A stretch of DNA of 64,000 bases, taken from assembly GCA_002269645.1 (NCBI GenBank), contig NIVC01001412.1, positions 103,398-167,397 of the forward strand, given 5' to 3'. The DNA comes from Macrostomum lignano. Taxonomy: Eukaryota. A model generated the notes under the pieces. It saw nothing but the letters and a program-made list of their open reading frames with translations, made no database searches and was not told the DNA's origin. Position 1 is the first letter of the stretch, and each line of letters opens with the position of its first letter. A program made the position numbers and the translations under genes. Shown in pieces: positions 13,231-35,561 of this stretch.

Positions 13231-13260
13231 TTTTTAACTAAAAATAAAATAAAATTAGAA

Positions 13261-14934: not shown

Positions 14935-14945
14935 AGGTACAAGAC

Positions 14946-15092
14946 TAGTCCCAAAATGACATACCTAAGTCCCAAAATGACACATCCAAGTCCCAAAATA
15001 ACACATCTAAGTCCCAAAATGACACATCTAAGTCCCAAAATGACACATCTAAGTCCCAAAATGACACATCCAAGTCCCAAAATGACACATCT
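14946..15092. repeat. 21-bp tandem repeat (CTAAGTCCCAAAATGACACAT), about 7 copies
   Basis: Directly visible in the intergenic spacer. Confidence 0.93.
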
Positions 15093-15136
15093 TCTAAATT
15101 ATTTATTATTAAAAAAAATTTTTATCATAGAAAAAA

Positions 15137-15934
15137 ATGGACTTTTCAAGCGACTTCAATCCTCACTGGACGCGTAATCAGATTAAGTTTTCTCATCATG
15201 AGTCAATCCCGAGTCACTTCAGATGCATTGTTGTTGGTTCATCAGGTTCAGGTAAAACATTCAGAGTCTTTAACATGCTTCTTAGACCTGGCTTTATCGA
15301 CTATGACACTCTGCACATCTACTCTCCCACACTGTATCAAGATGAGTATAGAATGCTGATTGCAGGGCTTCAAAACAAGCTGAACAAAGAGGACATTATT
15401 GCATGTTTTAATAACCAACAAAACCTTCCCAGTAACCCTGAAATTGTAGCTGCCGAATATGCAAAGCACCTCAAAGACAATGAAAAATGGCAGAACATTA
15501 AAGTGTTCACCTATGGAGATCCGCAGGTGATCCAAAGACCAAACTTCTACCCCAACCAGATGAGCTAGAAAAGGGAGAAAGCATTTGATCGTCTTTGATG
15601 ATTGTATGACAGGCCCACAGAAGCAGATAGAAAACTATTTTACAAGAGGACGACATAACAATTGTAATGTAATTTACATTGCACAGAACTGGTTCGAGCT
15701 CCCGAACAAAACAATTCGTGGGAACTGCAATCTGATTCTCCTGTTTCCAACCATTCCACAGGACAGGCTAAAAAGATTTTACAATGAGGTCATTGCGCCT
15801 GCCTATTTCATAAATCCAACAAAAAACTCAAGCAGAAAGATTTCACAGAGGAATTCGTTAATCTTTGCTATGACAAGTGGAATCAGCCTTACCAGTTTGT
15901 GATTATCAGCAAAGAAAAAAGAACTGTAATTTAA
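15137..15934 (+). pseudogene. A32/FtsK-like packaging ATPase, frameshifted
   Basis: Walker A GSSGSGKT, Walker B LIVFDD and YFTRGRHNNCNVIYIAQ. The pieces lie in different frames, with shifts near 15540, 15575 and 15815. The C-terminal FVNLCYDKWNQPYQFVII is in an alternative frame. Confidence 0.88.
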
Positions 15935-15937
15935 AAT

Positions 15938-16691
15938 TTGCTATTAAAAGATGTCTATAATTTTGCAGGTGAATCCATTTCTGGCAACAGCGCTCTTACA
16001 TCAGCTCAAATATCCATCCTTGACAGGCGATATATCAACAGCGACGAAGAGATCCCAGAGATCAAACTGAATAAAAACAGACTGAAACAATTAGAGCGCT
16101 CCATGCACCAGTTGCAAATAAACATGGAAGATCTCAGGCTTAAAGTAGCTAGGCAGAAGTTTGAAAGTGATAAGCTTTATGCGCAGTTGTCACAGCACTA
16201 ATGAACTTAGGTCAGAAATAACTTCGGCAGTCTCGCAAATCAACGGCTTAAGAACAAATTTAGCATCGACAATTAATCTTCTGAGAAACTCCATTGATAG
16301 GCGGATGCGCATTTTTGAAGAAGGAGTTTTCAGAAACACAGTTAAAGTGAGGAATTTAGAAGAGTTCATGAACCAGTCAACAGCATTGCATGATAGAATT
16401 AAAGAAAACGTCGCAACCAACACAGCTAAAGTGAATAATTTAGAAGAGTTCATGAACCAGTCAACAGCATTGCATGATAGAATTAAAGTAAGAATTACTG
16501 CAAATAAAGTCTTTGTAGATTTAATTTTTACCGAATGGCAGAAATCGTTGAGAAGAATCAGTCGTCTTGAACGCTTGCATAATCTCAAAAACATTGACGC
16601 TGAAGAGGCACCACAGACCACAAGGGAAATAAGTGATCCAACCGACTTGTTTGAGATCAGACGTAGAATGGAGCTCACAGACAATGAATAG
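15938..16691 (+). pseudogene. Coiled-coil Polinton protein (possible fibre/spike), one frameshift
   Basis: Two overlapping heptad-rich ORFs with an internal 28-aa duplication (KVxNLEEFMNQSTALHDRIK). Start codon uncertain. Confidence 0.45.
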
Positions 16692-16800
16692 GCAGATTCG
16701 AAGAGACCCGTTGCCGTGACTGCAGACGAAGCAATCAACCGTAAAACAAATCTAACACCACCAACTAGTTGTCGATTTTTTTAAAAAAATTCCCTTAAAA

Positions 16801-17467
16801 ATGGATGCTCAAAATTCTCTTTATGATCCGAAGGCTCCCACAACACCTAGTGCACCTAGTGCACCCCAATATGAGCAACAAAAACTCTACCCCGTCATTA
16901 CTTGTAACTCTCAACAGTTTCGACTGGTGGAGATTCAAAAAATGCGCGATGATCTTGAAAAAAATATTTTCCACAACACAAAGAAAATTAAGCGCTATGA
17001 CAACCACTGTAAATTTTTCGACTACAGCAATATGATTCTAGGATCTGTGTCTGTTCTATCTGGATCTGCTGCAGCTGTCTCAGTGTTGCCAGCCATCACA
17101 GCCCCAATCGCAATCCACTTGGTTCAGTGGTGCTGCATGTGGACTTATTTCAGCAATTACTGGAGCATTAGCGCGAAACAGGCGAAAAAAACTAAAGCAG
17201 CTACAGGAGAAGCAAGTAAAAGAGAAAGGGGTGCACACATCAATCATAGGGTACATTTCAAGGGCAATCGAGGATAAGTTCATTTCAGAGGATGAGTTCA
17301 AAACCATTCAGGATCTTTATGAACAATCAATTCGAATGAACTTGAACATGGTCGGTACTGATGACATGAGTCAGCTGAAAAATGAACTCGAGAAAGTTTT
17401 TCAACATTATGCGGAAAGAAAGTCGGCAAGAAATTCGGCAAGAAGGACAACGAGAAATGCACAATGA
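16801..17467 (+). pseudogene. GasderminX-like Polinton membrane-active protein, frameshifted
   Basis: QQFRLVEIQKMRDDLE, then a hydrophobic GSVSVLSGSAAAVSVLPAITAPIA stretch, then ISRAIEDKFISEDEF. This is the pattern of the adintovirus 'gasderminX' family. Split over overlapping frames. Confidence 0.7.
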
Positions 17468-17471
17468 ACCC

Positions 17472-17872
17472 CTATGAAACACAGGTACGAATAATTTCCT
17501 TGTAGGTCTTTCGTGTTTTGGTCATTGCATACAAAACAGTCATGCACAGCTCACCGCAAATATCACTGCTAAGACCTTGGAGAATAAAGTCTGAGCGATA
17601 AATTTTTTTATTATTTTTCCCTTCATATAATTTCTTAGCTCTTCTGGTACTGCCGTCCCATAGCTATCGAAGTAATAACACTTGTGCTTGCGATCGGGAT
17701 CAATCACCCAGCAAACCCAATGAGATCCTGGCTTATCGGCGGTGTCAAAGTTCATGATGCCGCATTCCTTTCTTAGAGGAAAATCAGGCAGAGTGTCCCT
17801 CATAAATATTCCTCTAAAGTTTGGGATTTCCAGTTCGTTAGCCAAATCTTCAAGAAAGTTATTTGTCGTCAT
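17472..17872 (-). pseudogene. Adenain-like cysteine protease, one frameshift
   Basis: GSHWVC (His), YYFDSYG (Asp). After a shift in an A-run near 17605 the frame reads LQGLSSDICGELC (Gln, Cys), with stop at 17472. Confidence 0.88.
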
Positions 17873-17917
17873 TTTTTATGAGGTTTATTAAACTTTCTCT
17901 TAAACCTAAACCCAATC

Positions 17918-20900
17918 TCAACCTCCTAAACCCAATCTCCAGTGCCCGAACGGTAGACTGTTAATATTGTCATCAAAAATGAATCTCTTGTTATCTGCAC
18001 CTGACAGTCCAATCTTCTTTTGCTGAATTGTGTGAATAATATTATTTTTAGATTGTAGCTTTGAGAACTCATGTGATGTCTTTTTGTTGCAATTCAAGGC
18101 GTCTCTGTATTCAGCTTCATTAATTTCCTTCCTAACCACACGTTTCGGAATTCCCTTTGATTTTTTAATTGGGTCTGACGACTCACATTTTACAAAATAG
18201 GACTTTGCTCTCAACCCAATGAATTCAGTGATTATGTCACCAGCAATCTCGTCCTTCATTTTCCCAATCACTTTCTTGTTAGTGGCGTCAAACACTTGAT
18301 CGCCATTCTGTGTCCTGCAAGATTCATCATACTCAGACAAGTCAAACAAATCTTTTTGCTGCAGCATGTCCTGATAAATGTCTTCTGTTTGAATGTCCAT
18401 AATAAAACTGTCTGTGTCAGTGTACAAGAGTTTCATTTTATCCTTGTACTGCTGCTTCATGCCATAGAAGAACTGGTACATCAGACGTTTTGATTCGTCG
18501 AGAACAGTGACACCTGTATAGATCGGCTTGCGCAGCGTCACCTTGGTTTTGTAAAATATGATCACACCTAAGTAGCTATTAAAGATATGGAGTTCTTTGA
18601 ATGTTGGCTTTGACATATTTGCCTGAATAACAGCAGGCTCTGATGAGGTAACAAGTTTCAGGTTTGTTCTTTTCCGCTCATTCTCAAGAGTCTTGCCATA
18701 GACAGAGTTGTTGGCCAACTTAAAGAGGTTCTTGTCAAAGTCGTTGGTTGCTTTGGTCCTAAACTGGGTGTTCTTATCAATGTAGGGTTTCATCCACGCT
18801 TCCTCTGTAAATGTAAGAGCCCTGTGAACTTTGGTGACCCTGCAACCAAGTGAGATAAAATACTGAAGCAGTTTGTAATGGATTTTGTAACGTGTCTTGT
18901 TGTTTAGATTCTGTGTTAGTTTCTCTGTATGTTCTTTTTCTGTTCCTGACAGGTGCCAAGTTCCATTGGGAGTTTCGATTATTTTCGGGCACTTGATGTT
19001 CTCTGGGAAGGGTGGAAAGTCAGAGAAATAGTCGTGAAGCTCTGGTGGAATGTAAACATCAACCTCATAAATGGCAGCCAATGAAAAGTCCCGTTTGAAT
19101 TCTGATGAGGGTAGCCATCGAAAATCTCTAACTGGAAGATCTTGACTCATCGCCCACCCGTAGAGATTATTAGCGTCCAAGTAAGTAATGTAGTTTGAGG
19201 GCTGCTCCTTATTGTAAGATTCAATGTAGGGATTGTTTGCTTTTGCATACCTGTTAACACAAATTGAGATTCCCCCTCGCTTTGACGATTCGACAAAATT
19301 GTACATGTCAATGTCTGTAAGAAGTTCAATGTACCAATCTGGATCTTGATCCCATTTCATTTTAAGCAAAGATTCCCAGCTAGTGGCAGGGAGACACATA
19401 ATGTGCAGGATCGAGGCCATATGCTGTGTACCAGGTATATCTGAAGGTTTCAAACACATCGGCCAGCAGAAACACATCTGTGTAGAGGTAAAGCAGGTGA
19501 TACTGGAAGAAGTTTTGACAATTAAAGTAATTATAGACATGCTTCGCGTGCTCATAGTCTTTGTCAGAGATTCCAGAGTCTGTTAGCTTTGAAAAGAACT
19601 TTCTTGTGGTGGTAAACCTTCTTCAAATACGTGATACCCAGTAATATTCTCATAGGGGTAGAAGCCTTTGGTTTTCAGGAGTTTAAATGATTCATCACTG
19701 TTGTAAATTTTACTTGCAAACATCTTTGTATATGTACATTGTTCATCTTTTAGATTCTTGCTTAGTTCGTCTAGACTGGCAGCTAGAAATTGATATGAAT
19801 CCTTCAGTCTTATTTTACCTTTACCCGAATTATCCTGTTTAATATCAACACACTTAAACTTCTCCTTGTTTTCTGCGATGCAATCAAGGTGTATGTCTGG
19901 AATCATGCCGATTTTTTCAACTATTAAATGCATGTCATAGTTCTTTGCGTTGTGACAAAATATCGTTAGATCATGAATGTTCGATTTTAGCTTTAGATTA
20001 CAGGTGTTATGCGCTGCACCTCTAAATTTCCCAGTAAAGTGGCAGTGGTCCCTAACGGTGGGGTTTTTAATATTAGTGCAAGTTAACTGTTTCCTGCAGA
20101 TGTGGCAATGAGTTGCTGATAGGAAATTGCTTTCATCCTCCTCAGTCATCATTATTGGAACAGGTTGAAAGGTGCTAATCACTCTTTGCAACTCTAACAT
20201 TCTGGCAATAAACAGCTCCACACACTGCTCTCCAAAGAAATAATTATACTCAACAAGTCCTTTTGTATTAATAAAGGCATATGCTACTGAATTGGGGACA
20301 TGTTTTAGAGTTTGAGTTTGTTTTTGAGTTTCTTGAATGATTGAGCATTCGAAATCAGCATATACAACAAATGGGAGCTTCTCCATCTTGTGATAGTTCT
20401 TAAACCGGAGATACTTCTCTTCAGCTGAAAGAAGAGAGCAGTTGGTCGGGTGATCCTCGCATGATAATTCATGCTCTGTTAGTTTTTCAAAGCGTTCAGG
20501 TCCATTGTAATGCTTAAGGCACAAGCGGCAGATGGCAACAGCCTCGTGATGATTATTCAACTGCTTGTGAATGAGTCTTGAAAGATCTTTAATCCAAACA
20601 TAGTGAGCCTCCTCTAGTAAATTACCAATCACTAGAAGATCCACTTCAATCCGCCTTTTCCCCTCGGGATCTAAAACGTCTTTGCTACATCTGACCGGTT
20701 GAACTTTCTCAGTTTTTTCACTCCACTCAAAGACTGTGATTCTAATTTTGTTATTGAAACACTTCTTCTAGCTTGGGATCTGAGAGATCGCCAAGCCTCC
20801 TTTGTCAAACCTGATTCCCTTCTTTTCGCATTCAATGAGATAGTAGTTGAAATAATTTTGATAATTTGAGGTTCTTTCGGGGTGGTGAGGGACACTATCA

Positions 20901-21741
20901 TGAAAAAGTGCAGAAAGAACTGCCCATAGAGCACAGCAATTGTCTTTATTTTTAACATTTATGCAAGCTTTTTTGCCGGCTAGCTTGTGTGGGAGCTCTA
21001 TATAAGAGGAGGCTTTAAGTGGGTCATATTTCATGACCATGACAGTCGCTCTTTGAATCCCTCCCACGACCCATCCGGAACCTCTGGATGTAAACGCTTC
21101 AATTTTCTTAGTGACATCTTGAAGGAAAGGATCCAGTGTGTCTGTTGGGGTGAATGGCTTTGCCTTTGTTGTCATGTATTGTAATACTCGAGATGCTCAG
21201 TGGGTTTCGCAGGCATATAAAACGCAATCTTGAATGATATCTGTAGTTTAAAGGTCTTGCGTGTTTTGAGTGTGTGATCAACAACTGATTGGATGCTGTC
21301 TTTATAGTCGTAGATGTTTGCGGTGGTATCCTTAATTGGGATTGTGTACTCTATGTAATGTTCTGTAAACTTCCTCTGTGCAAAATTAATCTCTTCAATG
21401 GCAAGCATCGACTCTTTTAAATGGATTAATTGCTCTAATTTCTCTTGTTCCTGCTTATTTTGTGGGTACTTTGCTTTTTCACCAGTGAGAGTTTCGTATT
21501 TGTTAACTAAGTTGCGACTCCTCTCTTGGTGTTCCTTTGCAGGATTTTTTATAGGCGCATACTGGTTGGATTCTAATTGATTGATGATTTCCAACTGTTT
21601 TTCATAGCTTCCCAGGTGACCAGGGTCGGTGTTGAACTTTTGTTTGTATGCTTCTCTTAGTGAATTACTTTTGTCTTGAAATGAGACGCCTTTTGAAAAA
21701 TGTTTGTTGACTAAATCTTTTGCTGGATTAGCTTTTGGCAT
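17918..21741 (-). pseudogene. polB: Protein-primed family B DNA polymerase with endonuclease VII-like insert, disrupted
   Basis: GSGW/SSYIELP/INVKNKDNC N-terminus, YADFEC, RDHCHFTGKFRGAAHNTCNL, HNAKNYD, YLYTDVFLLADVFE, YLDANNLYG, KLANNSVYGK and YTDTDS. Lesions near 21175, 20768 (stop), 19590 and 19395. Confidence 0.93.
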
Positions 21742-21864
21742 TTTTTCTCTAAAATAAAAAAAATTTTTGAGGGTGACCACCCTCATAGAAAAGTTGAACT
21801 GTTTCTACATCCTATCAGTAGTATTAGGTTTATGAAGCTGGATAAAGTAGGGTTTTAAACCTCA

Positions 21865-22311
21865 TCACATGCGCATTATTGTAAACCCAGCATTGTGCAG
21901 TGTCATGATAGCTTTGACAATGTCAGACTTGCTTATAGAATTTTCATTCTCACAATCATCACGATCGGGGCAGCCCTCTCCTGCCTTAATTGTTATACCT
22001 TTGTCTCTTGCAATCTTTTGCAATTCTAGCTGGTGGGCTCTATCATTCCCAGCTTTAACAGCAGTTGCTACACCTCCAGCTACACCACCTGCGGCACTTA
22101 CAGCGCCTGCAATGATTGGGATAAGAGCTGCTAATGGTAGGATTCCTCCTGACTTTTCATCTGTGATGCTGTGTGTTTGCTCATTACACTGAACTATTTG
22201 CTGCACGGGATCGATTTTTACTTTGGCACCTTTAATTGATATAAGACCTGGTTTCTTTGATTCAATGATTTTATTGAGTTTATTGATGGTTCTGGTTTCA
22301 ATCTTTGTCAT
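21865..22311 (-). CDS. Adenovirus pX/pVII-like core protein precursor
   Basis: SGG|ILPLAALIPIIAGAVSAAGG resembles the adenovirus pX C-terminal GG|ILPLLIPLIAAAIGA segment. Confidence 0.65.
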   Translation of the reverse strand: MTKIETRTINKLNKIIESKKPGLISIKGAKVKIDPVQQIVQCNEQTHSITDEKSGGILPLAALIPIIAGAVSAAGGVAGGVATAVKAGNDRAHQLELQKIARDKGITIKAGEGCPDRDDCENENSISKSDIVKAIMTLHNAGFTIMRM

Positions 22312-22327
22312 TTTTTATTTTAATATT

Positions 22328-23365
22328 TTAATTAATTTCTGTGTCAGCCGGTATCACTAGGAGTTCAGCTCTAGTGAATGACCGCGTGGGGGATTTAGGG
22401 TTAAAGGCCTGAGATAAAAAGTAATATTCTCCAGAGTCGGGGGTAAAATGTCTGTCTATTTTATGTACATCAAGGCTGAAGTATGGATCTGTAGCTCTTC
22501 TTTTGGTGTCCTTCTCTAGCTCTCCAGGTAGATATAAAAAGCGTAGAAACTCAGAGTTTGTCAGTATGTATGGTGATTCAACTCCTGGAAGCTTCGGGTA
22601 GTTTGAGGTGTGTTTTGTGTTGTGCGTGTTGTGTGGGGTTGTCGTGTTGTTGTCTGTTCTATGAGATGACTTAAGTTCGACAGTGTCTTGTTTAATTGCA
22701 TGGGACGGTTTCAATCCAGTCATGCGCGTGACTTCATTGTTCAGTTGTTCTATAACAGTGGGGAGCCGGTCTGTCCACTTGGTATAGTACTGACCACTTT
22801 TTAGTTTCAGCTCTTCAGCTGTCTGCTTAGTGAATAGCCTCTTGGCTAGAGTTAGATTGAATCTTTCCACAAAAGCCTGGTCTCTGTGCAAGTTTGTTCT
22901 GCCATAGCGAATCTCTGTATTTTTCTTTTCCATAAGGGATTTCACTGCACCCATGAATTCCTTACCCGGGTCGGTCATAAAGATTTGGGGGTATGTGAGC
23001 GGAGAGTTTTTATAAATATCTTGGAGGGCGGTTTCAACTGCTTCTGACTTCTTCGTCTTAAGCGGTCTCGCTTCCTTATATCTGGAGGCAACGTCTGTAA
23101 TTGTGAGAGCATACTTGTAGCCCGAGTCATTGGGGAGAAACAGAAGATCTGCTTGGTGCGCCTCATTAGGTTTATAAATACTGAAATGGGGCCTTTCAAA
23201 TTTTACTGGTGGGAAATAGACTTGAAAGACAGCCTGCTTAGAGAGCCATTTTTCTACTGTAGCTTTTGGTTCCTTACTTAGTTCTGCGAGTTTGGTGACT
23301 GCATTTTTTCCTACAAAGAATCCTTTGTCGCTGTAGTAGAGTTTTTTAAGTTTCTGATCTGTCAT
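22328..23365 (-). CDS. int: Retroviral-like (rve) DDE integrase
   Basis: Intact 345 aa. HQADLLF (D), MTDPGKEF (D), AFVERFNLTL (E). No evident chromodomain. Confidence 0.93.
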   Translation of the reverse strand: MTDQKLKKLYYSDKGFFVGKNAVTKLAELSKEPKATVEKWLSKQAVFQVYFPPVKFERPHFSIYKPNEAHQADLLFLPNDSGYKYALTITDVASRYKEARPLKTKKSEAVETALQDIYKNSPLTYPQIFMTDPGKEFMGAVKSLMEKKNTEIRYGRTNLHRDQAFVERFNLTLAKRLFTKQTAEELKLKSGQYYTKWTDRLPTVIEQLNNEVTRMTGLKPSHAIKQDTVELKSSHRTDNNTTTPHNTHNTKHTSNYPKLPGVESPYILTNSEFLRFLYLPGELEKDTKRRATDPYFSLDVHKIDRHFTPDSGEYYFLSQAFNPKSPTRSFTRAELLVIPADTEIN

Positions 23366-23396
23366 TTTTTTTAAAAATAAAATTTAAAATAAAATA

Positions 23397-23897
23397 ATGC
23401 AACGCTCTGGTGGTAAGTTAGATTCACATGGACTGATAGAAAAGCTTCCTCATCCAAACAAAGGCTGGACCATTCCCGGGTACAAATATTGTGGGCCTTT
23501 GAATCCACTTGAAATACAGTTAGATACAAACAATAATACAAATCCTGGGCATGAGCCTGTGAACGAGCTAGACTCTGTCTGCATGTGGCACAATGTTAAA
23601 TATAGAGATTTTCCTGAGGAGAAGAATCGCTGGGACAAAGAAATGCTTAAGAGACTAGACAATATAGGGGCTTCAAGCGGATTTCGTGAGTCGATCGCTC
23701 GGAAGCTAGTTAAAGCTGTTATTTTTGGTAAAACAAAGTTGGGGTTGGGGGTTGAAGGCGAGGGCGGGTGCACAGGGAGAGAGGGCTGGTGCACGAGGAG
23801 AGAGGGCGGAGGCTCAGGAGCGGGGTTTATTTTGTGCGCTCCTAACAATGAATTGGGAAGAGTTTTGAAAGATATGGGGGTAGAGAGAGACGCTTGA
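23397..23897 (+). CDS. Parvovirus VP1u-like phospholipase A2 (PLA2X)
   Basis: PGYKYCGPLN Ca-binding loop and PVNELDSVCMWHNVKY (HD replaced by HN). KLGLG motif downstream. Confidence 0.8.
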   Translation: MQRSGGKLDSHGLIEKLPHPNKGWTIPGYKYCGPLNPLEIQLDTNNNTNPGHEPVNELDSVCMWHNVKYRDFPEEKNRWDKEMLKRLDNIGASSGFRESIARKLVKAVIFGKTKLGLGVEGEGGCTGREGWCTRREGGGSGAGFILCAPNNELGRVLKDMGVERDA

Positions 23898-24077
23898 GTC
23901 GGGAAGGATTTAAAAAAAAGACTCATCGATATATTAAATTTTACAAAATAGCACTAATTTTACAAAAACAAAATAAAATGAAAGACAGTTGAAATTTATT
24001 AGTGTTTAAGAAAACTATTATTAGTTTAAATTCATTATATTTAATCATTAAAAGCAATACATTCCATTTAATACATG

Positions 24078-25468
24078 ACTACTAAGGACCCATTTATCCG
24101 CCCTTTTTGGAGGTGGGGTGGGTGTCAACCCTCCTCGCCTCTCATTGGCTAGCGCGCGCGCCGCAGGCGCGTGGCGCCAAGCGCCATCCAGGCGCCAATT
24201 AGGCGCCCATGCCGCAGGCGCACCCTCCCGATATGTACCCGATATGTATGCCCACCCTCCCGATATGTACCCCGATATGTATGCCCTCCCGAGCCGCAGG
24301 CGCACCCTCCCGAGCCGTAGGCGCCCATGCCGCAGACGCCCATGCCGCAGGCGCCCCGAGTGTACACTCTCCCATGCCGCAGACGCCCATGCCGCAGGCG
24401 CCCCGAGTGTACACTCTCCCATGCCGCTGGCGCCCCGAGTGTACACTCTCCCCAGTACGGGTGTACACTCTACCACTCCCCCGATATGTAGTCAACGATA
24501 TTAGGCTAGTGAAAACTACTTATAGTAGATGAAATTGCGTATATTTACATAAAAAGTAGATAAAACATATTGGTAGGTGTGAATAATGACGCATAATGTA
24601 TATTAAAATGTACATATTGGAGCATAATAGGAATATGAGCAGCAAAATACACACAATGTAGGCGCATGGGCAGAAATAGACAAAGCAGGTACTGTAGGCG
24701 CTACATAGGTGGAAATACACACAGTATATTGCACACACTCTAGATTCCAATTATGTAGGTGCATAGGCTAAAATACACACACTGTAGGTGCAAATTGAGT
24801 ATAATACACTAAAATTATAATACATAGCATATAATGTAGGCGCATTTTAAACAATACATTTTTGCATAATAACCCGCAGGTACAAATTTCAGTGCATAGG
24901 CTAAAATACACACTGCAAATTGAGTATAATGCAGGAAAATTGTGACATATACAACATATGTATGCAAATTAAGCATATAATGTAGGTGTAAAGTAAAATA
25001 CAAGCAACCGGCTCCCTAGTAAACAGACACGCCCCCAGAGCCAGGGCCGGGGGATCCCAAGTACAGTGCGGTCAGAGAGGAGTAACATAGAGAAATTCCT
25101 CCCCAAGCCCCAAATAAGGTTTTTTTCATGGGGATCCCAAGTACAGTTCAGGCAGAGAGCATTCCAATCCTCCCCAAATGGGGGTTATCAAGGACCCCTC
25201 ACATTGCACAGGGCGGGCAGAATAACAGACCGCATACAAATAGGGGTTTTAGCGGATCCCAAGTACAGTGCGCTCCCGGGTGTCAAATGATGCCCCAATG
25301 TACAGTGGAGGTAGAGTAACAGACCGCATACAAAGAGAATTCCAGTCAAACTTTACAGCACCTCCCACCCCAAATGAGGGTTTTAGTGGATCCCCAGAGG
25401 GTAGCTCTCCAAGTTGAGGGATCCCCCCGTGTGTTGCGAGGCCCAAGTACAGTGCAGGCAGAGAGTAA
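24078..25468 (+). repeat. Left TIR (1,391 bp) of the nested element
   Basis: Reverse complement of 31799-33189. The mirrored ORF translations are identical and homopolymer lengths checked by eye match. Confidence 0.93.
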
Positions 25469-25708
25469 CAGAGTACAAAGAGAAATTCCCTTATCAGTCA
25501 AACTCGAGCTCGATCTTCAGCCAGGGCAGTCTCCTCCTCATCAGCGCTCTCGAAACATCTGTCAAAGTAAACAATATTTTAGTGTTCAATATAGACAGAT
25601 TATATCTAATTTATATACAATTTATATGAAATTAAGCTTACCAAAATCGGGTTCGCGCTGTACGGATGCGGCACGACTCAATTAGCAACCCTCGTCAAAC
25701 AGATTTCC

Positions 25709-26167
25709 CTAAGGGTAGGGTTTGATGCTGTCAAGGCAGTCCTGCAGATTTTCCTCTGTCTTGGCTCTCTTGGCCTCGGGCTCCAGCTTGAAGAGCTTGT
25801 CCAAACGGGAGGCAAACATCCGGCGCCACAGTTCAGGCGTGAATTCGATCGTGTAGCGCCAATTAAACTTTGGGTCCACGTTGAGCCAATTGCGCCGCAA
25901 ACGGATCCTCCCTCGCGAAGCTTCAACTGCCTTGAAATTGCCCAACAGGACCCGCTTGTTCACGTGAAGGCGGGCAGCGGCCTCCAGGTCAGCCCGCGCA
26001 GCTTCGAGCTTCTTCCACTCTGGCTCGGCCAAGTAGATTGCAGGGAAGCCGTCCTTCCACACTCCAGCCTCGTTGGTGTAGAGACGCCGAATTTCAATCA
26101 AGTTGTGTTCAGTTTCAAATGTGGGCTTCCGCGCCACAAAGTTATCGTATAGAGAGATAGAAGACAT
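25709..26167 (-). CDS. PC4-like ssDNA-binding protein (putative)
   Basis: LIEIRRLYTNEAGVWKDGFPAIYLAEPEWKKL matches the PC4 pattern (VDIRxxYxxxxGxxKPGxKGIxLxxxQWxxL). There is a possible degenerate second repeat. TATA box upstream. Confidence 0.65.
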   Translation of the reverse strand: MSSISLYDNFVARKPTFETEHNLIEIRRLYTNEAGVWKDGFPAIYLAEPEWKKLEAARADLEAAARLHVNKRVLLGNFKAVEASRGRIRLRRNWLNVDPKFNWRYTIEFTPELWRRMFASRLDKLFKLEPEAKRAKTEENLQDCLDSIKPYP

Positions 26168-26411
26168 GATTTAGCAGCAGCAGCAGCAGAGAGCTCTCTG
26201 ACAGCCGTGCAGCGCCTTATATACCCCCGGATGGAGGGTGGGGTGGGTGGTGATTTTGAGGGTGATTTTTGATGATTTTGGTTGGTTTTTGGCGATTTGA
26301 CCAATAGCAGGCAAGCTGAGCAGATTTTTTAGTATATATACAGACCCCCAGAGCCAGGGTAGAGAGATAATGCTTCTCTCCGCTCGCTCTCTCACACTCT
26401 CTGTTTGCAAA
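26168..26411. promoter_or_regulatory. Bidirectional Pol II-type promoter of the nested element
   Basis: Minus-strand TATATAAG at 26216-26223, CCAAT at 26301-26305 and plus-strand TATATATA at 26333-26340, between divergent ATGs at 26167 and 26412. Confidence 0.55.
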
Positions 26412-29400
26412 ATGGCTAAACGCAGCGCCACCGCAACTGCTTTCCTGGCTGACAAGAGGCAACGTCTTTATGGTAAGTTTTAATTAATTTCTGTCTAGAC
26501 TGTAGTTGCTAGGGTGGGGGTAGGGGCTGAGCAGCAGCAGCAGCTGCAGGGTCTGTGGGACCGCAGAGTAAACAACAAAGACTGGGACTGCTGCGACAGC
26601 TGCAGGGGTCTAGACTGGAGTTGCTAGGGTGGGGTGCTGCGGCAGGGTCTGTAACAGATAATCGTTGGGGCGGGCTAGACAAGTTACAGCCGGTTTAGCA
26701 GCAGCAGCAGCTGCAGGGTCTGTGGGACAGCAGTCTAGACTGGAGCCTCGGGTGGGGTGTTGTCTAGACAGGGAGGGGTGTGCTGATAAGAAATTGCTGC
26801 AAAAACAGACAGTTGCTAGGGTGCTGCGGCAGATAAGAAATTGCTGCAAAAACAGATAATCGTTGGGGCGGGCTAGACAAGTTACAGCCGGGTGGGGGCA
26901 GAGAGTTGCTGGGACTGTGTAGCACGGGGGCAGACTGATAGGGGGCTGGCTAGACAGGCTGCAGCTAGGTGCAAATTGCTGCGACAGAGAGTTGCTGTGG
27001 GAGGGGTGAGTAAACAAAGACTGGGACTGCTGCGACAGGCTGCAGCGGGGGTGCAGATAAGAAATTGCAGAGAGTTGCTGCGGGGACAGCAGAGTAAACT
27101 CTGTTAAGAAATTGCTGGGGCTAGGGCGGGGAAACACGCTGGGGCCAGGAAAATGACAGATTCTTCTGGTTTTTTATCTCCTTGTGTTTTTTCAGACGCG
27201 TTTGTCCCGCCAACACAGCCGGAATCTGTTACCGGACCGGGTGAGTTATCCTGCCCCATTTCCCACACAGAACCGGGCTGACTCACACTCCCCCATTCCC
27301 CCCATGCAGGTTTTACGGCCCGGCTGGATAATCAGCGTGACCTGCCCAAGTTTAGGGCAAAGGGTGTCGAGTATGTGGTGCGTATTACCAACACCGAAGA
27401 TTTGCGGGAGGTGTTTGCCGACATGCTCGAAGTTTTCAAGCAAGATTTGGCTGGTGATGACTTTATGGCCGCGAAATTCGAGAGCGACAATATGCTCAAA
27501 GCAGCCCATACTCCCCCGGTGCGTGCAGCCCGCATGACGGCTGAATTGTTGTTTAAGCACATCAACAAGATTGTGCAGCCGGATGCCACTGTCCTGACGG
27601 GCAACTTTTCTATCCGTCTGCTAAAAGCCTGGGTGCCCCGAGGTGGCTGTGCCCTCGAGAACAAGCATCTAGAGGAGCGGCACGCCTTCTCCAAGCACTA
27701 TGTCCGCATCACCAACTCGGACAAGAGGTGTCTGCTGCGCGCTCTGGTCGTGGCCTGCGCCTACCTGCAATTCGTGGCCAAGTCCATCACCGAGAAGGTG
27801 TGGCGCACGATCAAGGCCAATTCGTCCAAGCAGACTAAGCTTGCGACTGAGCTACAAATCGAAGCTGGCCTCTACACGGTAAGTTTCTAGTATTTTTCTG
27901 ATAAGAATTTTTACACAGTATCGTGGAATACTAAAAGATATATTTTCTGATAAGATTTTTTACACAGTATCGTGGAATACTAAAAGATATATTTTCTGAT
28001 AAGAATTTTTACACAGTATCATGGAATACTAAAAGATATATTTTCTGATAAGATTTTTACACAGTATCATGGAATACTAAAAGATATATTTTCTGATAAG
28101 ATTTTTTACACAGTATCAGGGGATACTAAAAGAACCATACTCTGATAAGAAATTTTACGATAAGGAACACTAAAAGAAATATTTTACCCTCCACACAGAC
28201 TCTTCAAACCGTCTCGCAGGCTGGTCCTTTCGGGGTGGATGCACTGCCCGAAGCGATCCGTGCCCTGAACCGGCTGCATCCGGGGCACGATTTTGGTGTA
28301 CGCGTGTACCGCGCAGAGGAGGCCAACAGGTGCATCTTCAACCTGCCTGGCACCGAGATTCTGCACCTGCACCTGGTCGAGCAGCACTTTAATGTGGTTA
28401 CCAAGCTGCCTGCGTTTTTCGGCTCCGTGCGCTACTGCCCCAAGTGCGAGATGGCCTACGACTGCGCCAACGCCAAGCACAAGTGTGCGGATGCCTGCAG
28501 TACATGCAAGACTCCGGGCTCCAACTGTAAGGCAAACCGCGCATATGTAAGATGCCATGATTGCGGGCTAAATTGCTATAATGCTCAGTGCCTAGAAAAT
28601 CACAAACGCAAGAATAAGGCCGGCAGATCGCGCTGTGATTCGGTCCACGTTTGCGGCACGTGTGGCTATCTAGAAGAACTAAAAGTAGGCCAGCCCCCTG
28701 AGCATCAGTGTGGTTATGCCAAGTGCCCAGTCTGCAAGCAGTACGACGAAACTGCCACCCACGAGTGCTTTGTCACCCCGCCCAAAGCCAAAGAGTCTAG
28801 CGCCCCGTATGTTTACTATGATTTCGAGACGTACGTGGACTCTGGCAAGCAGCATCGGGTACACTTGGTTACGGCTGCCACCTCCTGCGAGGCGTGTCCC
28901 AAACTCTTCCCCAGGCCCCGCTGCAGCGTGTGCGGGGGACTACACAGCTCAGCCAATTGCATTGCGGGACGCAATCTGGCACTCGATTTCACGAGCTGTG
29001 TCTCGCACAATGACTGTGCCTGTGGGATGCGAGAGTTTGTATCTGTCGGGCCGCACTCTATCGATGCCTTTTACTGCTGGCTGACTAGTGTGTTCAAGCA
29101 GGGGGCAATTGCTATTGCGCACAATGGCTCTGCGTATGACGCATTCCTCCTGCTCGGCGCCCTACTCAACGGACTGGCCAAGAAGAAGCCGCAAGTGATC
29201 TTCCAGAACAGCCGCCTAATGTACATGAAGTGCGACAAGATCACCTTCAAGGACAGCCTCAATTTCATCCCTATTGGTCTGGCGCAATTCCCAAAGGCGC
29301 TTGGTTTGGGCACCCAACTGACCAAAGGAGATTTCCCGCACGTGTTTAACCAGCCGGAAAACTGGGGGTACGTGGGACCCTACTGCTCAATTGATATGTA

Positions 29401-31573
29401 TGGAGGAAAGAAAAACAAGCAGCATGACTCCATCGCCGACTGGCTGGCCAAGCAGGAGGGACAGGTGTTTAATTTCAATAAGGAGTACCTGGACTACTGC
29501 CTGCAGGACACGTTAATTTTGCGGGAAGGCTGTCTAAAGTATGCCCGCCTGATTAAGGACATTTGCGGACTGGACGCATTTGTTCAATCCAACACCATTG
29601 CGGGCTTGGCCATGGCAGTATTCACCACCAAGTTTATGGAGCCCAACACTCTTGGGGTGATTTCCCGCCGGTCCGATGTACAGTCGCACAAGGCGCGGTG
29701 CTGGCTTGCGCATTTGAATGCAACCGAGTTTGGCGGCCGGTTGAGGACAGCCGATTCTGGCGGCGAGGCTTTCGCCATGGGCCGTAAGGTCGACGGCTTC
29801 GACCCAGAGACCAGGACAGTGCTGCAGTTTCATGGCTGCTTCTACCATGGCTGTCCCAAGTGCTTCCCCAACGGCGACGTGCTGCACCCGCTCAAGAACC
29901 AGCCAATGCGGGCGATTTATGAGGAGACTGAGCGCTTCACCCGGCTGCTCTCCACTGCCTACAATGTACGTGTCATGTGGGAGCACGACTATCAGGACGA
30001 GGGAGCGCCAGTCCAGCAGCCTATTCGCCTGGAGGATGCCCTGTTTGGCGGCCGTACCGAGGCTTTTGTCCCGCACGCCGAGGCCACCGAGACTGTAGAG
30101 CTGCGCTATCGGGATGTGGTAAGTTTGTACACTTGTACACACAGTTGACATGCGTTTGAGTTTATCTTATCCTTATCCCCTAGGTGTCGCTCTACCCGAC
30201 TGTCAACAAGTTTGACAAGTACCCGGTCGGGCACCCGGTACACCACCCCGAGCCTCATCTACTGGATGAGCTGCAGCTGGCCCGGTATTTTGGCATCGCC
30301 GAGGTGTCGATTCTGCCGCCAACCAATCTCCACATCCCGCTACTGCCCGCCAAGATTAACAAGAAGCTGGTTTTCGGCCTCTGCCGCGTCTGCATGGAGA
30401 CCCAGTGCAGCAGCGAGTGTACACACACTGACGCTGAGAGAATGCTCCGCGGCACGTGGTCGACCCCAGAGCTCCACAAGGCCCTGCAGTTGGGTTACAA
30501 GCTGCAGTCAGTTCATGCCCTGGCCTATTGGACCGAGACTCGCACGGGTCTGTTTGCAGATTATGTAAACACTTTTTTGAAGCTCAAAGCCGAGTCTAGC
30601 GGTTCGCCGGGGATGGCTGAGGACGCCAAGGCTGCCTACATGGCCAGCTTTTTCGAGCGCGAAGGCGTCCGGCTGGAAAAGGTGGAAGAAAATCCTGGCC
30701 TGCGCTTTGTTGCCAAGATTTTTCTAAACTCGTAAGTTTTTCTACTTGCAGTGGGGACCATGTTTTTCTACTTACAGTAGCCAGATATACAAAAATTTAT
30801 TTTTCCCCTGCAGGCTCTGGGGCAAGTTCTGCCAGCGCGACGACCTGACCTCCACAGAGATTGTGGACAGCTACGAGGCGTGGCTGCAGCGCCTGACCGA
30901 CCCCTCGATCAAGGTCAAGTCGTGCGAGCCAATTGGGGAGAGCTTCATGATGCTCGAGTACAAGCCCCGATTTGGCGGTGCTGGCGAGCGGGCGTTCAAG
31001 TACGCTAATGTACCTATTGGCGTTTTCACCACCTCCCACGCCCGGCTGCGACTCTACGAGGCTCTGGAGGGTCTAAGAACCCGCGTCATTTACGCCGATA
31101 CCGATTCGTAAGTAATTTTTTCACTGTCTCTGTCTCTCTTTCTCCCCTTAACACTTTTTTATCCTTCTCCTCCTCCCAGGGTCGTATACCGCTGCTCCCC
31201 GGGCGAGTACGAGCCTCCGGGCGGTTCGAGTTTGGGGCAGTGGACTTACGAGGTACCTGCTGGCTGCCGCATGGTACAGTTCACCACGGGAGGCCCCAAG
31301 CTCTACCGGTACGTGGTGGAGAAGCCCGACAGGTCACTGTACTCGGTGCTCAAGTGTAAGGGCATCAGAGTCACCCCCGAGATTTCCGAGCGCGAGGACG
31401 AGCTGCAGGAAATTCTACGCCACGGCGGGACTGTACGGCTGCCCCAGGCCAAGTTCAGGCGCGATAAGGCCAGCTGCACAATAAGGACCCTCGAGATGGA
31501 CAAGACTTTCCAGCGCGTGATGACTAAGAGGGTGTATGGGGCCGCTAGCCGCCCGTATGGCTTTCGTGAGTGA
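26412..31573 (+). CDS. polB: Seven-exon protein-primed DNA polymerase B (1,276 aa after splicing)
   Basis: Exons 26412-26472, 27196-27240, 27310-27878, 28199-30118, 30184-30731, 30814-31107 and 31180-31573. All introns are GT-AG with matching phases; total 3,831 nt. Motifs: YDFET, AHNGSAYD, FKDS, KGDFPH, VDG...QFHGCFYHGC, FGGRTE, DV|VSLYP, NS|LWGKF, YADTDS|, GPKLY, KCKG. Confidence 0.93.
27895..28175. repeat. 49-bp tandem repeat inside pPolB intron 3
   Basis: TTTTCTGATAAGAATTTTTACACAGTATCGTGGAATACTAAAAGATATA, about 5.5 copies. Confidence 0.9.
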
Positions 31574-31798
31574 GTGAAAGATAAGGATCTGTCTTTGCAC
31601 GCCTCCCTGCCCGGGATTCCCCTATGCTCTAAACTCACCCCAACTGTGCATTCTGGCGGGGATCATTTGACACCTCCCCGTACATTGGACGGGATCCCTT
31701 CAAGTGTTAAAACTCCCATTTGACACCTCCTGAACATTGAGGCTGGGTCCTTCATCATTTGACACCCGGGAGCGCACAGTACATGGGGGCGGTCTCTA

Positions 31799-33189
31799 TT
31801 ACTCTCTGCCTGCACTGTACTTGGGCCTCGCAACACACGGGGGGATCCCTCAACTTGGAGAGCTACCCTCTGGGGATCCACTAAAACCCTCATTTGGGGT
31901 GGGAGGTGCTGTAAAGTTTGACTGGAATTCTCTTTGTATGCGGTCTGTTACTCTACCTCCACTGTACATTGGGGCATCATTTGACACCCGGGAGCGCACT
32001 GTACTTGGGATCCGCTAAAACCCCTATTTGTATGCGGTCTGTTATTCTGCCCGCCCTGTGCAATGTGAGGGGTCCTTGATAACCCCCATTTGGGGAGGAT
32101 TGGAATGCTCTCTGCCTGAACTGTACTTGGGATCCCCATGAAAAAAACCTTATTTGGGGCTTGGGGAGGAATTTCTCTATGTTACTCCTCTCTGACCGCA
32201 CTGTACTTGGGATCCCCCGGCCCTGGCTCTGGGGGCGTGTCTGTTTACTAGGGAGCCGGTTGCTTGTATTTTACTTTACACCTACATTATATGCTTAATT
32301 TGCATACATATGTTGTATATGTCACAATTTTCCTGCATTATACTCAATTTGCAGTGTGTATTTTAGCCTATGCACTGAAATTTGTACCTGCGGGTTATTA
32401 TGCAAAAATGTATTGTTTAAAATGCGCCTACATTATATGCTATGTATTATAATTTTAGTGTATTATACTCAATTTGCACCTACAGTGTGTGTATTTTAGC
32501 CTATGCACCTACATAATTGGAATCTAGAGTGTGTGCAATATACTGTGTGTATTTCCACCTATGTAGCGCCTACAGTACCTGCTTTGTCTATTTCTGCCCA
32601 TGCGCCTACATTGTGTGTATTTTGCTGCTCATATTCCTATTATGCTCCAATATGTACATTTTAATATACATTATGCGTCATTATTCACACCTACCAATAT
32701 GTTTTATCTACTTTTTATGTAAATATACGCAATTTCATCTACTATAAGTAGTTTTCACTAGCCTAATATCGTTGACTACATATCGGGGGAGTGGTAGAGT
32801 GTACACCCGTACTGGGGAGAGTGTACACTCGGGGCGCCAGCGGCATGGGAGAGTGTACACTCGGGGCGCCTGCGGCATGGGCGTCTGCGGCATGGGAGAG
32901 TGTACACTCGGGGCGCCTGCGGCATGGGCGTCTGCGGCATGGGCGCCTACGGCTCGGGAGGGTGCGCCTGCGGCTCGGGAGGGCATACATATCGGGGTAC
33001 ATATCGGGAGGGTGGGCATACATATCGGGTACATATCGGGAGGGTGCGCCTGCGGCATGGGCGCCTAATTGGCGCCTGGATGGCGCTTGGCGCCACGCGC
33101 CTGCGGCGCGCGCGCTAGCCAATGAGAGGCGAGGAGGGTTGACACCCACCCCACCTCCAAAAAGGGCGGATAAATGGGTCCTTAGTAGT
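31799..33189 (-). repeat. Right TIR (1,391 bp) of the nested element
   Basis: Reverse complement of 24078-25468. Confidence 0.93.
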
Positions 33190-33316
33190 TACATGAAGTT
33201 GAATTTTTAATTATTGAAATATTAAATTAATATTACTATTTATTAACAATGCATTTTAAAGTTATAAAATGGATAAGTTAATAACTATAGCTACTAAGGT
33301 GTATGATTACCTATGT

Positions 33317-33502
33317 AATTCTGGACCGTCCAGAATTTTCTGGAAATATTTGTTACTTATAGTAGGCTTGAATCTAAACTACATTCAATTCTGGACCGTC
33401 CAGAATTTTCTGGAAATATTTGTTACTTATAGTAGGCTTGAATCTAAACTACATTCAATTCTGGACCGTCCAGAATTTTCTGGAAATATTTGTTACTTAT
33501 AG
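33317..33502. repeat. 70-bp direct repeat (about 2.7 copies), each starting with a 21-bp palindrome
   Basis: AATTCTGGACCGTCCAGAATT at 33317, 33387 and 33457. Confidence 0.9.
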
Positions 33503-33559
33503 TATTTTTTCAGAGTCACCTTCATATTGTCCATCGTCTTCCTTCTTCCTCTTCACTGC

Positions 33560-34521
33560 TTAAACAAATGTCTCCATCTTCTCCTCTGTCTCTTCCAACA
33601 GGCTTCTTTCGTCTTCGTCTTCACCTTCCCATATTATTGTGAACTCCGTTTCTAGCTTGCATCGGAAGTTTTCGTCGTTGAATGCTTCCTTCTCGATAGT
33701 CTTTTTGAACGTAAGCAATGTCTCCATGCTGTAGCCGGAGAACAAGATGTTAGGAAATTTGGTTAATAAACCATGAAATGTGAAAAGCCGCTGACCAAAT
33801 TTAACCGGAGTATCCAAGCGTCTGGCTGTCTCTTCCGTTGTTAGACCAAACTTGTTCTTGTACTTTGCAAATACTTCCGCTTGTTTTTTCTTCGCTAGAC
33901 ACCCCAGAACTTCAACGTCTGCGATAAAGAAGTCCAGATTGATGTATTGCGTGCGCATGCTCTCTTCATCGTCTGGCACATCGGCCGTGCACAACTCCCT
34001 GGCGTTGTTAAATCTAAAAAGAAATAATATGCAATCATAATGTGAATTAGATCAAAGGTTTGCTTGCATAAATCTCTAATCTAATGTCAAATCTATCTAT
34101 AATCATGTTTGATCACGTTTAAATCACCCAATCAAGAATTATGAGAAATTTTGTCAATGTGTTTCACTATAAAAACTAGTAGAGAGCAAAAGTAATAAGC
34201 AAGTATCGCTCACAAGTAAAATAATAAGCAAAAGACTTACCTTGTCTGGATCACAATTTCTTCCTTTCTTATGTTGTTCATCGTTTCCTTTAACCTTGCT
34301 ATGAACCGTACGTCTCTTCTTTCATTCTCGACATCAACGCGTTTGGCCTCCTCGGATCTTTCCTTCTTAGAAGATTGCTCATCAATCTTTTCAAGACTTT
34401 TCAATAATGCAGCTTGTTCTTCCTCGGTCATTGCCGAGATGGTGATTGCTGTGCTGGTTGTGTCCTTTGTATTGATGTTTTTAATTTTATTTAGAATTTT
34501 ACTTGGCGTCTTGGAAGCCAT
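33560..34521 (-). CDS. Two-exon Polinton orphan gene (244 aa)
   Basis: Exon 34521-34241 (donor AG|GTAAGT, phase 2), intron 34240-34014 (TTTTTAG acceptor), exon 34013-33560. 735 nt, in frame. TATATATA about 80 bp upstream. Confidence 0.7.
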
Positions 34522-34728
34522 TAGATTAAAAAATTCGAGTAAGGTTTAGCAAGGGCGAGGTGGAGCAGGCAGGGTGAGGCGAGGGGCGGTGTGAATCGGC
34601 TGTATATATACAATTGGTGTGGGCTCGGAAATCTATTTATAGGCATAGGCATTTTTATTTATACCTAGGCAGTATTTTCAATTTATGGTTTAAAATTAAT
34701 AACAATTAATGGTTGCCAAAGCGGAAGT

Positions 34729-34975
34729 AAAATGGAAAGCACATGTGGAGTGCGTGGCATGGGTTTTATTTTTAGAACGTACGTCTACACTCTACAAGGT
34801 ACTACCTTGTAGTTGGCAACTACATGCAACCGCCTTATATCTTCAGCCAATGGAGAGAATGGAAAGCACATGTGGAGCGCATGGCATGGGTTTTATTTTT
34901 AGAACTTACGTCTATACTCTACAAGGTACTACCTTGTAGTTGGCAACTACATGCAACTGCCTTATAACTTCAGCA
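34729..34975. repeat. Direct repeat of about 128 bp (2 copies) with internal hairpins next to the right TIR
   Basis: ATGGAAAGCACATGTGGAG...CTACAAGGTACTACCTTGTAGTTGGCAACTACA occurs twice. Confidence 0.85.
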
Positions 34976-34981
34976 AGAAGT

Positions 34982-35561
34982 TGATTTAAAGTTTTAGGGA
35001 TCTGGTTTCGCGTTGCAAATTGAATGTGGGAAGAAGAATGCAGATTATTTTCTTATTGTTTCGAAAATGCTATGGGTGGATGTCAGTGGATGATGTCTGT
35101 GTCAGTGAGCATAACGGGTATCAGTGGATACCTGCTCTGATTCTGTCAGGGATAATATGGATGGATTTAATGGGATTATGTTCGAAGTTTTCGGAGCAAG
35201 TGCGGCCCCTCCCCTTTTTCATGATTCTGTCAGGGATAATATGGATGGATTTAATGGGATTATGTTTGAAGTTTTCGGAGCAAGTGCGGCCCCTCCCCTT
35301 TTTCATGATTCTGTCAGGGATAATATGGATGGATTTAATGGGATTATGTTCGAAGTTTTCGGAGCAAGTGCGGCCCCTCCCCTTTTTTATGATTCTGTCA
35401 GGGATAATATGGATGGATTTAATGGGATTATGGAGGACGTTTTGTGAGCGAGTGCGACCCCCCTTTTTTTCTGATTCTGTCGGGGATAATATGGATGGAT
35501 TTAATGGGATTATGGAGGATGTGAAAAATTTTGTCCCAAAAGCCCCCTCATGCCTTCTACT
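34982..35561 (-). repeat. Right TIR of the Polinton
   Basis: Mirror of 10432-10766 with extra internal subrepeat copies. Ends CTACT, followed by the TSD TATTTT. Confidence 0.9.

Follow-up and report, generated by a model that had tools for sequence, protein, structure and literature searches.

We describe a DNA polymerase gene of the protein-primed type (pPolB) in a 64,000-nt window of the genome of the flatworm Macrostomum lignano (assembly GCA_002269645.1, contig NIVC01001412.1, positions 103,398 to 167,397; "the window" is this whole stretch, and coordinates count from its first letter). The gene is split by six spliceosomal introns and is carried by an element of 9,112 bp (24078-33189), itself inserted in a decayed Polinton. 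It runs on the + strand from an ATG at 26412 to the TGA that closes exon 7 at 31573. Its parts are given with their evidence in brackets; the sister copies and family 2 are described below.

26412..26472, +, pPolB exon 1 (gene model, transcript contigs)
26473..27195, +, intron 1, 723 nt, phase 1 (gene model, sister copies, transcript contigs)
27196..27240, +, pPolB exon 2 (gene model, transcript contigs)
27241..27309, +, intron 2, 69 nt, phase 1 (gene model, sister copies, transcript contigs)
27310..27878, +, pPolB exon 3, coding for the N-terminal region, a putative terminal protein, and for the Cys-bearing half of a putative vOTU (homologue alignment)
27879..28198, +, intron 3, 320 nt, phase 0, containing a 49-nt tandem repeat (model, copies, contigs, family 2)
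28199..30118, +, pPolB exon 4, with the His-bearing half of the putative vOTU, a region rich in Cys, exonuclease motifs I-III, a VSR-like insert and the opening half of motif A (Pfam scan, homologue alignment)
30119..30183, +, intron 4, 65 nt, phase 0, within motif A (model, copies, contigs, family 2)
30184..30731, +, pPolB exon 5, PF03175 at 47.9 bits (Pfam scan)
30732..30813, +, intron 5, 82 nt, phase 2, within motif B (model, copies, contigs, family 2)
30814..31107, +, pPolB exon 6 (gene model, homologue alignment)
31108..31179, +, intron 6, 72 nt, phase 2, within motif C (model, copies, one X6 contig, family 2)
31180..31573, +, pPolB exon 7, TGA at end (gene model, homologue alignment)

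The seven exons add up to 3,831 nt, whose whole codons are free of stops save for the final TGA, and the introns have, in order, phases 1, 1, 0, 0, 2 and 2, with GTRAGT donors and YAG acceptors throughout. All of this reproduces on the sequence what a preliminary description of the window, made without database searches, had predicted. Two of its further points stand as well: introns 4, 5 and 6 sit within motifs A, B and C, and the context TC/GTAAGT at introns 5 and 6 stops the unspliced frame at the second codon. Every other intron, translated in frame, also runs into a stop. The + strand of the window has 29 GTRAGT sites; eight are within the gene, and six of these eight are the intron donors. 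In their GT..AG ends, pyrimidine tract and removal from RNA the introns agree with the spliceosomal U2 type, and a branch-like motif is present in four of the six. The introns are mutually dissimilar (a single 13-nt match); the repeated-sequence feature of introners is absent.

Exon 4, by itself a 672-codon open frame, passes the PF03175 cut-off (55.7 bits), as does exon 5. It holds YDFET, HNGSAYD and YCLQD, which we take to be exonuclease motifs I-III. Exon 3 aligns with the N-terminal part of homologues, at E 2e-15 in the case of P0056. DKRCL in exon 3 and EQHF in exon 4 stand at the positions expected for a vOTU, to which there was no Pfam match; intron 3 presumably separates the putative vOTU Cys from the His. 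A VSR regular expression was unmatched in pPolB, its WEHD end alone being found, and a Pfam-type scan of pPolB gave no helicase match.

Evidence for the introns

In a whole-element search of the genome 18 of 441 candidates were scored, and the 17 copies other than that of the window were fetched as a sister set (family 1). Across these, GT and AG ends are kept at all 102 intron positions (17 copies by six introns). Intron lengths differ among the copies (119-320 nt for intron 3), and exon lengths vary by no more than 4 nt; indel events per kb number 0-1.0 in exons and 12.8-22.3 in introns.

A further test used homologues from outside the genome. Among 128 of at least 900 aa, motifs A, B and C are uninterrupted in 109, 90 and 98, respectively. 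The spliced model has spacings of 183 (A to B) and 98 (B to C), within the ranges of 164-223 and 94-113 found in the 74 homologues with all three motifs, and the exon matches abut with gaps of one to three residues on the single-chain homologues P0046 and P0016. That the introns are coding insertions is ruled out by the in-frame stops, the free length variation and the contiguous homologues. In one outside homologue, P0138, the first half of motif A is followed directly by a final Phe/Ser-rich stretch resembling intron read-through; from its sequence it is possibly an independent spliced pPolB elsewhere.

By exon searches at least 50 loci have a protein identity of >90%, and about 30 fall at 64-72%, both figures being lower bounds. 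The latter belong to a second family (family 2), about 65% identical in protein to family 1. The preliminary description had proposed comparing intron positions in homologous elements, and these are the same in the sister copies and, for introns 3-6, in family 2: at six family-2 loci introns 3-6 lie at the same codon positions and in the same phases, at 23 of 23 junctions examined, a count that covers introns 3-6 only and leaves out one interrupted junction. The family-2 introns differ from those of family 1 in sequence and length (61-87 nt). Introns 3-6 and the reduced layout described below, being common to both families, are therefore older than the family split, or the layout arose twice. 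A degraded relative, 35-46% identical, is contiguous across the positions of introns 4 and 5, which makes intron gain in the spliced lineage the simplest reading. It is a single pPolB (G000:C234:57213-58972, L067) with no close DNA relatives in the genome.

We examined four sequencing runs from four studies, of 24 listed, as contigs; none is recorded as RNA. X1, X5 and X6 are RNA by guess, and X15, of unrecorded kind, is DNA-like. Among the joints listed, exact GT..AG ones were found for introns 1, 2, 3 and 5 in X1, X5 and X6 and for intron 4 in X1 and X6. The joint of intron 6 is in a single X6 contig, where the pieces 30814-31107 and 31180-31566 are consecutive; the same contig runs through exons 5, 6 and 7. 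Many joints have short flanking sides (18-45 nt). X15, although it covers every bin, has no depth at any of the five joints listed. The probable RNA runs also contain intron-covering contigs, and one has an alternative in-frame acceptor for intron 3. Since the contigs differ from the window copy at many places, this evidence speaks for the family and not provably for the window copy. The predicted junctions are present as spliced joints in three probable RNA runs from three studies (intron 4 in two of the runs, intron 6 in one), and these exact joints, together with the PF03175 matches, bear out the earlier claim that the gene requires the spliceosome. Splicing of pPolB at six spliceosomal introns is virtually certain.

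It had also been claimed that scans based on open reading frames would miss this family. This held in part. The exon 4 frame passes PF03175 by itself, and junctions 2-6 are found piecemeal in automatic UniRef gene models, most of them chimeric, so that databases already contain the splicing, though unremarked; surveys that depend on integrase linkage would miss the family (Jeong 2023; this and the other papers are cited from the parts of their text available to us).

The element and its copies

The element has the following features beside pPolB.

24072..24077, left target-site duplication TACATG, 6 bp (sequence)
24078..25473, +, left terminal inverted repeat (TIR), 1,396 nt, starting ACTACT (repeat alignment)
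25559..25641, -, 83-nt GT..AG intron beyond the PC4-like stop, leftover of a second leftward gene, ORF2 (longer copies, contigs)
25709..26167, -, PC4-like gene, 152 codons, two PC4-type repeats (profile, model)
26168..26411, putative divergent promoter region, TATATA boxes at 26218 and 26333
31794..33189, -, right TIR, 1,396 nt, finishing AGTAGT (repeat alignment)
33190..33195, right target-site duplication TACATG (sequence)

The 6,320 nt between the TIRs hold the pPolB gene (5,162 nt) and the PC4-like gene (459 nt). Each of the 18 family-1 copies, which are 8.5-10.1 kb long, has the ends ACTACT..AGTAGT and is flanked by a 6-bp duplication that differs from copy to copy. Family 2 has ACTACG..CGTAGT ends with 6-bp duplications at five of the nine loci fetched; at the other four no ends were found within the fetched range. 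The TIR arms of the window copy differ by one mismatch. Within a copy the arms are 85-99.9% alike, but they are 74-81% alike to the window TIR (nine copies). In each of L018, L019 and L020 the last 60 nt on the left and on the right are 7-13% different from each other, and the left end of L020 is like that of another subfamily; from these sequences the three may be recombinants between subfamilies. A target preference for Polintons was not supported, as the flanks, judged from short stretches, and the duplications all differ among the 18 copies.

Against the window copy the 17 sister copies gave proportions of synonymous (pS) and nonsynonymous (pN) differences of 0.096 and 0.011, a pN/pS of 0.11 from copies that share history and so are not 17 independent measures; the ratio is lowest in exon 5. 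None of the 17 has an in-frame stop in pPolB. The low ratio and the absence of stops indicate that the elements' own polymerase has been needed for their spread.

Two left halves of the element lie head to head in a snap-back palindrome (G000:C1090:36570-47863; L089, L090), with 4,692-nt arms 99.96% alike. It keeps ACTACT ends and a 6-bp TACAGG duplication, and its polymerase is truncated; having integrated cleanly in this state, it implies that insertion needs the ends and not an intact polymerase in cis. Such palindromes are products of strand-displacement copying of a linear molecule, as in the defectives of adenovirus and linear plasmids. Inverted clusters of family-2/family-1 polymerase pieces at G000:C157:57000-82000 (L046-L048), C471:87600-92300 and C1263:55640-55890 are possibly further copy-back products. 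Two family loci contain other insertions: a 1,507-codon frame with PHD fingers, probably a retroelement, inside a family-2 element (G000:C2286:145760-150280; L038, L036), and one copy whose polymerase and PC4-like gene are 35 kb apart with another Polinton polymerase in between, probably a nested Polinton (G000:C271:279000-316000).

The PC4-like protein is probably a single-stranded DNA (ssDNA)-binding protein, as judged from its sequence and a structure model. A profile of it and five relatives matches human PC4 (E 2e-7). All six aligned members match PF02229 at E<=1, the best at 1.1e-8 and the element's own protein at only 0.041. Its model (pLDDT, the score that the local distance difference test is predicted to give, 79.5) has two strand-strand-strand-helix repeats and weakly matched the PC4, PUR and Whirly folds; a single-sequence model of the small frame reached just pLDDT 40. 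PC4 clusters came up at 0.88 in the Atlas, a lead only. The gene in the window stops nine codons sooner than in sister copies. Relatives 31-33% identical adjoin the integrase in other resident Polintons; the PC4-like gene is immediately upstream of it at G000:C2389:115311-131236, C219:428169 and C6:635014. This arrangement, unmentioned in the parts of the literature looked at, possibly reflects shared ancestry or exchange.

Eight longer family-1 copies have about 1.2 kb extra at the left, in which a leftward frame of 278-336 codons was read in five. This ORF2 (L026:1380-2288 (-), L015-L021) has about 280-335 codons, a low-complexity middle and an 83-nt intron, and gave neither a Pfam family nor an Atlas match. 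It is absent from 10 of the 18 copies, perfect recent ones among them. X1 and X5 contigs contain the joint of its remnant intron in the window as 25559-25643, one letter extra.

The element was inserted at a non-coding spot of a decayed Polinton, of which these parts are recognizable.

10432..35561, decayed canonical Polinton hosting the element, AGTAGA..TCTACT ends, TATTTT duplication
11944-13233, double jelly-roll (DJR) capsid gene
near 15131, piece of an A32-like ATPase gene
17918-21804, intronless pPolB in pieces, with in-frame stops and a frame change
22328-23383, rve integrase gene
23388-23897, PLA2 gene

It also contains pX, and an accessory gene at 33560-34460 (-) seems to be spliced, from a GTAAG donor near 34241 to a TTTTTAG acceptor near 34014. 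The polymerase of the host family is a single open frame of up to 1,315 codons. Elsewhere in the window are a BEL/Pao long terminal repeat (LTR) retrotransposon with identical 231-nt LTRs (41718-48728; DUF1759, protease, reverse transcriptase, Peptidase_A17, integrase), a 519-codon frame with a Mab-21 C-terminal domain of the cGAS-like receptor family (4276-5835), a 313-codon frame with a weak QRICH1-domain match (39856-40797), and direct repeats (7473-7997 and 9819-10342; 96-98%), 2,346 nt apart, around a 28-nt tandem array.

Origin, spread and rival explanations

The carrier had been presented as a Polinton or adintovirus, and as a canonical one it fails, having no integrase and no space for capsid genes. 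A profile built from four resident Polinton integrases, which detected both controls at 1e-38 or better, found nothing at E<=1 in 18 family-1 and four family-2 elements, nor was an integrase present in four additional loci examined. Capsid gave no tblastn match at eight family-2 loci, and between the TIRs of the window copy pPolB and the PC4-like gene leave no coding room for one. With Polintons the element shares pPolB (PF03175), long TIRs (1,396 nt) and a 6-bp target-site duplication; it lacks an rve integrase, genes for capsid, ATPase and protease, and intronless core genes, and its ends are none of the Polinton/Maverick motifs (AGT)2//(ACT)2, (AG)3//(CT)3 and (AC)3A//T(GT)3 (PMC8097293). 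For want of integrase, capsid genes, end motif and intronless core it falls outside the Polinton class as defined.

The polymerase was not derived from that of the host Polinton (no BLAST match better than E 0.39; tree distances 4.6-5.3), nor from those of five other resident Polinton families. Distances to other animal-type pPolBs are 1.8-2.5. The tree (FastTree, 115 sequences, 379 columns) left out the family-2 model and proteins <900 aa or without DTDS; it gives a sister group (SH value 0.91) that is long-branched and that we do not trust. The closest outside relatives are animal-type pPolBs of 27-37% identity, one labelled VSR endonuclease by its source, and the nearest database proteins, 94-99% identical, carry the name Macrostomum lignano. 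Viral and metagenome contigs gave no relatives in a search sensitive to close relatives only.

The element is probably a self-replicating, integrase-less Polinton derivative that is inserted by an integrase acting in trans. Elements of 8.5-10 kb would have been reduced from a Polinton to a replication module, pPolB with the PC4-like gene, that by analogy may work like that of a Polinton or adenovirus. RNA polymerase II would transcribe both genes from the divergent promoter. The polymerase would use its own terminal protein as primer at the ACTACT ends, and a linear extrachromosomal form would be copied by strand displacement, the PC4-like protein coating the displaced strand. An rve integrase, most likely from a co-resident Polinton family, would then insert the element in trans, and occasional packaging into helper capsids is possible. 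The introns would go back to a single gain in the common ancestor of the two families and would now be constitutive parts of the gene. That the elements have a 6-bp duplication yet encode no integrase suggests that an rve enzyme acts in trans. End motifs made of short repeats are suited to jump-back protein priming, duplications of 6 bp are usual in Mavericks, and a fish Maverick has ends that start with AC (PMC8097293). Potential helpers are abundant: the host Polinton family alone has at least 116 integrase copies at 90% or more.

Several observations weigh on the other side. A helper with ACTAC ends was not found; ends were located for two of the seven resident families looked at, the window host and C2389, both integrase-carrying and AGT-type, and not for the other five. 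About 31 of about 80 loci were opened, so that a larger integrase-carrying member could be missed, and the capsid profile missed its own controls, which leaves the absence of capsid genes to coding room and tblastn. In a fold search with the PC4-like model nothing matched at E<=0.001, the best rows for PC4 having E 0.08, and several family-2 loci had no PC4-like match in a tblastn-type search. One to six exon codons bear indels in nine of the 17 sister copies, through decay or assembly error. The extrachromosomal form, the terminal protein and any particles are so far predictions.

A rival account, which we consider unlikely, makes the elements deleted forms of an autonomous, complete Polinton that has ACTAC ends and the same spliced polymerase, still supplies integrase and capsid, and is unassembled, polymorphic, or among the unopened loci. 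Mavericks are as a rule defective, at 96% of vertebrate loci (PMC8097293); the PC4-like genes beside integrases in other resident Polintons fit such a parent, and so do ends that match none of the helpers seen. On this account, however, the reduced layout, present in two families about 65% identical, requires a loss that predates their split or happened twice, the reduced copies are themselves under purifying selection, and none of the 22 scanned elements or four further loci has an integrase.

It is improbable, though compatible with a self-replicating derivative, that the introns act as a regulated switch limiting the polymerase to a tissue or the germline, as P-element intron 3 does. Three introns cut catalytic motifs, every retained intron stops translation, and the positions are conserved across families; the intron-covering contigs of the probable RNA runs and the alternative intron 3 acceptor would also suit a switch. 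DNA or pre-mRNA explains the intron cover equally, however, and the motif locations may merely reflect G-rich proto-splice sites; near-consensus donors and spliced joints in all three probable RNA runs likewise speak against regulation. An alternative benefit is that introns may license transcripts against surveillance of intronless mobile elements.

We give little credence to the same replicon being inserted by a non-Polinton enzyme, either an LTR-retrotransposon or Ginger-type integrase or an activity of the VSR-like insert or ORF2. LTR-element rve integrases are very numerous (4,300 candidates) and ORF2 belongs to no recognized family; the element ends, moreover, mirror local Polinton ends. 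LTR integrases, however, require TG..CA ends and mostly make 4-5 bp duplications, ORF2 is missing from more than half of the family-1 copies, and the C1090 palindrome integrated cleanly with a truncated polymerase. Lastly, introners colonize integrated dinoflagellate Polinton-like viruses, mostly after integration (PMC11957031), but the idea that the present introns are debris acquired after insertion, whether introners or neutral insertions into dead copies, or that the host has domesticated the gene, has a negligible chance and is refuted by the same positions in 18 independent insertions and in family 2, whose intron sequences are unrelated, and by mobile copies, each with a different duplication, whose six introns are unlike one another.

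Beyond a self-replicating derivative inserted in trans, we put at about even the chance that these elements form an old self-sustaining lineage of nuclear, linear-plasmid-like Polinton satellites, without capsid or integrase, that have their own spliced polymerase and ssDNA-binding protein and mirror-image ends and are integrated, perhaps packaged, by Polinton helpers.

Comparison with known systems

The element family is real, multi-copy, transcribed and apparently undescribed. Two working rules are broken by it, that core genes are intronless and that pPolB is always linked to an integrase. The first was a premise of the preliminary description and agrees with the available text of Barreat and Katzourakis, whose intact vertebrate Mavericks are without introns (PMC8097293), and of Widen et al., who report intronless core genes and cargo genes with introns (bioRxiv 2022.07.12.499685). 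A spliced pPolB was not found in the parts seen of PMC8502044, PMC11161782, PMC10748475, PMC6431247, PMC12220804, PMC10175614, PMC13215967 and bioRxiv 2026.10.13.758929. Our literature search, with Repbase, supplements and subscription papers outside its scope, gave no description of a spliced Polinton pPolB or of these flatworm elements. Surveys that demand an integrase link or several Polinton genes would miss such elements, which may therefore be undercounted in animals.

In this family the gain of introns by a gene of viral origin can be seen cleanly, alongside a putative satellite-helper relation. If the satellite reading is true, it is also a transcribed, recently mobile replicon of Polinton type in a laboratory animal, and an example of a virus core gene that is fully intron-structured yet mobile. 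To our knowledge, protein-primed replication of animal Polintons is still inferred from sequence. Because this family is transcribed and correctly spliced, evolves under purifying selection and has inserted recently, with TIR arms 99.9% alike, in an apparent laboratory flatworm, its predicted linear, protein-capped intermediate is open to direct search.

Polintons/Mavericks (eupolintoviruses, adintoviruses) are alike in their NSLWGKF/YxDTDS pPolB with a VSR-like insert, long TIRs, trinucleotide-repeat ends and 6-bp duplication, and resident ones too have a PC4-like accessory gene. From its sequence the spliced polymerase appears to fit the VSR-bearing pPolB2 group of Jeong et al. (2023; PMC10748475). 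Polintons differ in carrying integrase, capsid, ATPase and protease, in a length of 12.7-24.6 kb versus 8.5-10 kb here, and in core genes reported as intronless, where our polymerase has six introns; their common end motif is mirrored here as (ACT)2//(AGT)2.

Adenovirus has a similar E2 module, in which spliced Pol II transcripts encode a protein-primed polymerase, a terminal protein and an ssDNA-binding protein; splicing there adds a short leader to a polymerase frame that is otherwise unbroken. It differs, in the text available, by a separate terminal protein and an inactive vOTU, and also in having capsids and not integrating. Cytoplasmic and mitochondrial linear plasmids are not known to be chromosomally integrated with 6-bp duplications or to use the spliceosome. 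Otherwise pGKL and kalilo, and also the transpovirons, are, like this element, capsid-less linear replicons with TIRs and a pPolB fused to terminal protein (PMC11161782). Transpovirons depend on giant viruses, and the hallmark of the Transpoviron/Tlr1-like group, a fusion of pPolB with a superfamily-1 helicase, without exonuclease in transpovirons, is replaced here by exonuclease motifs and no helicase match.

Ca_PLV1 (PMC11296320) is an integrated PolB element with no detectable integrase, for which trans-acting integration was proposed, as here; in the available text elements of its type are treated as capsid-coding viruses tied to entomopoxviruses, without a spliced PolB. Spliceosomal-type introns are likewise found in the introner-bearing Polinton-like proviruses of dinoflagellates (PMC11957031, PMC12166617), where, as far as the available text goes, they are repetitive and mostly post-integration, whereas those of the Macrostomum element are unique, old, conserved in position and inherited.

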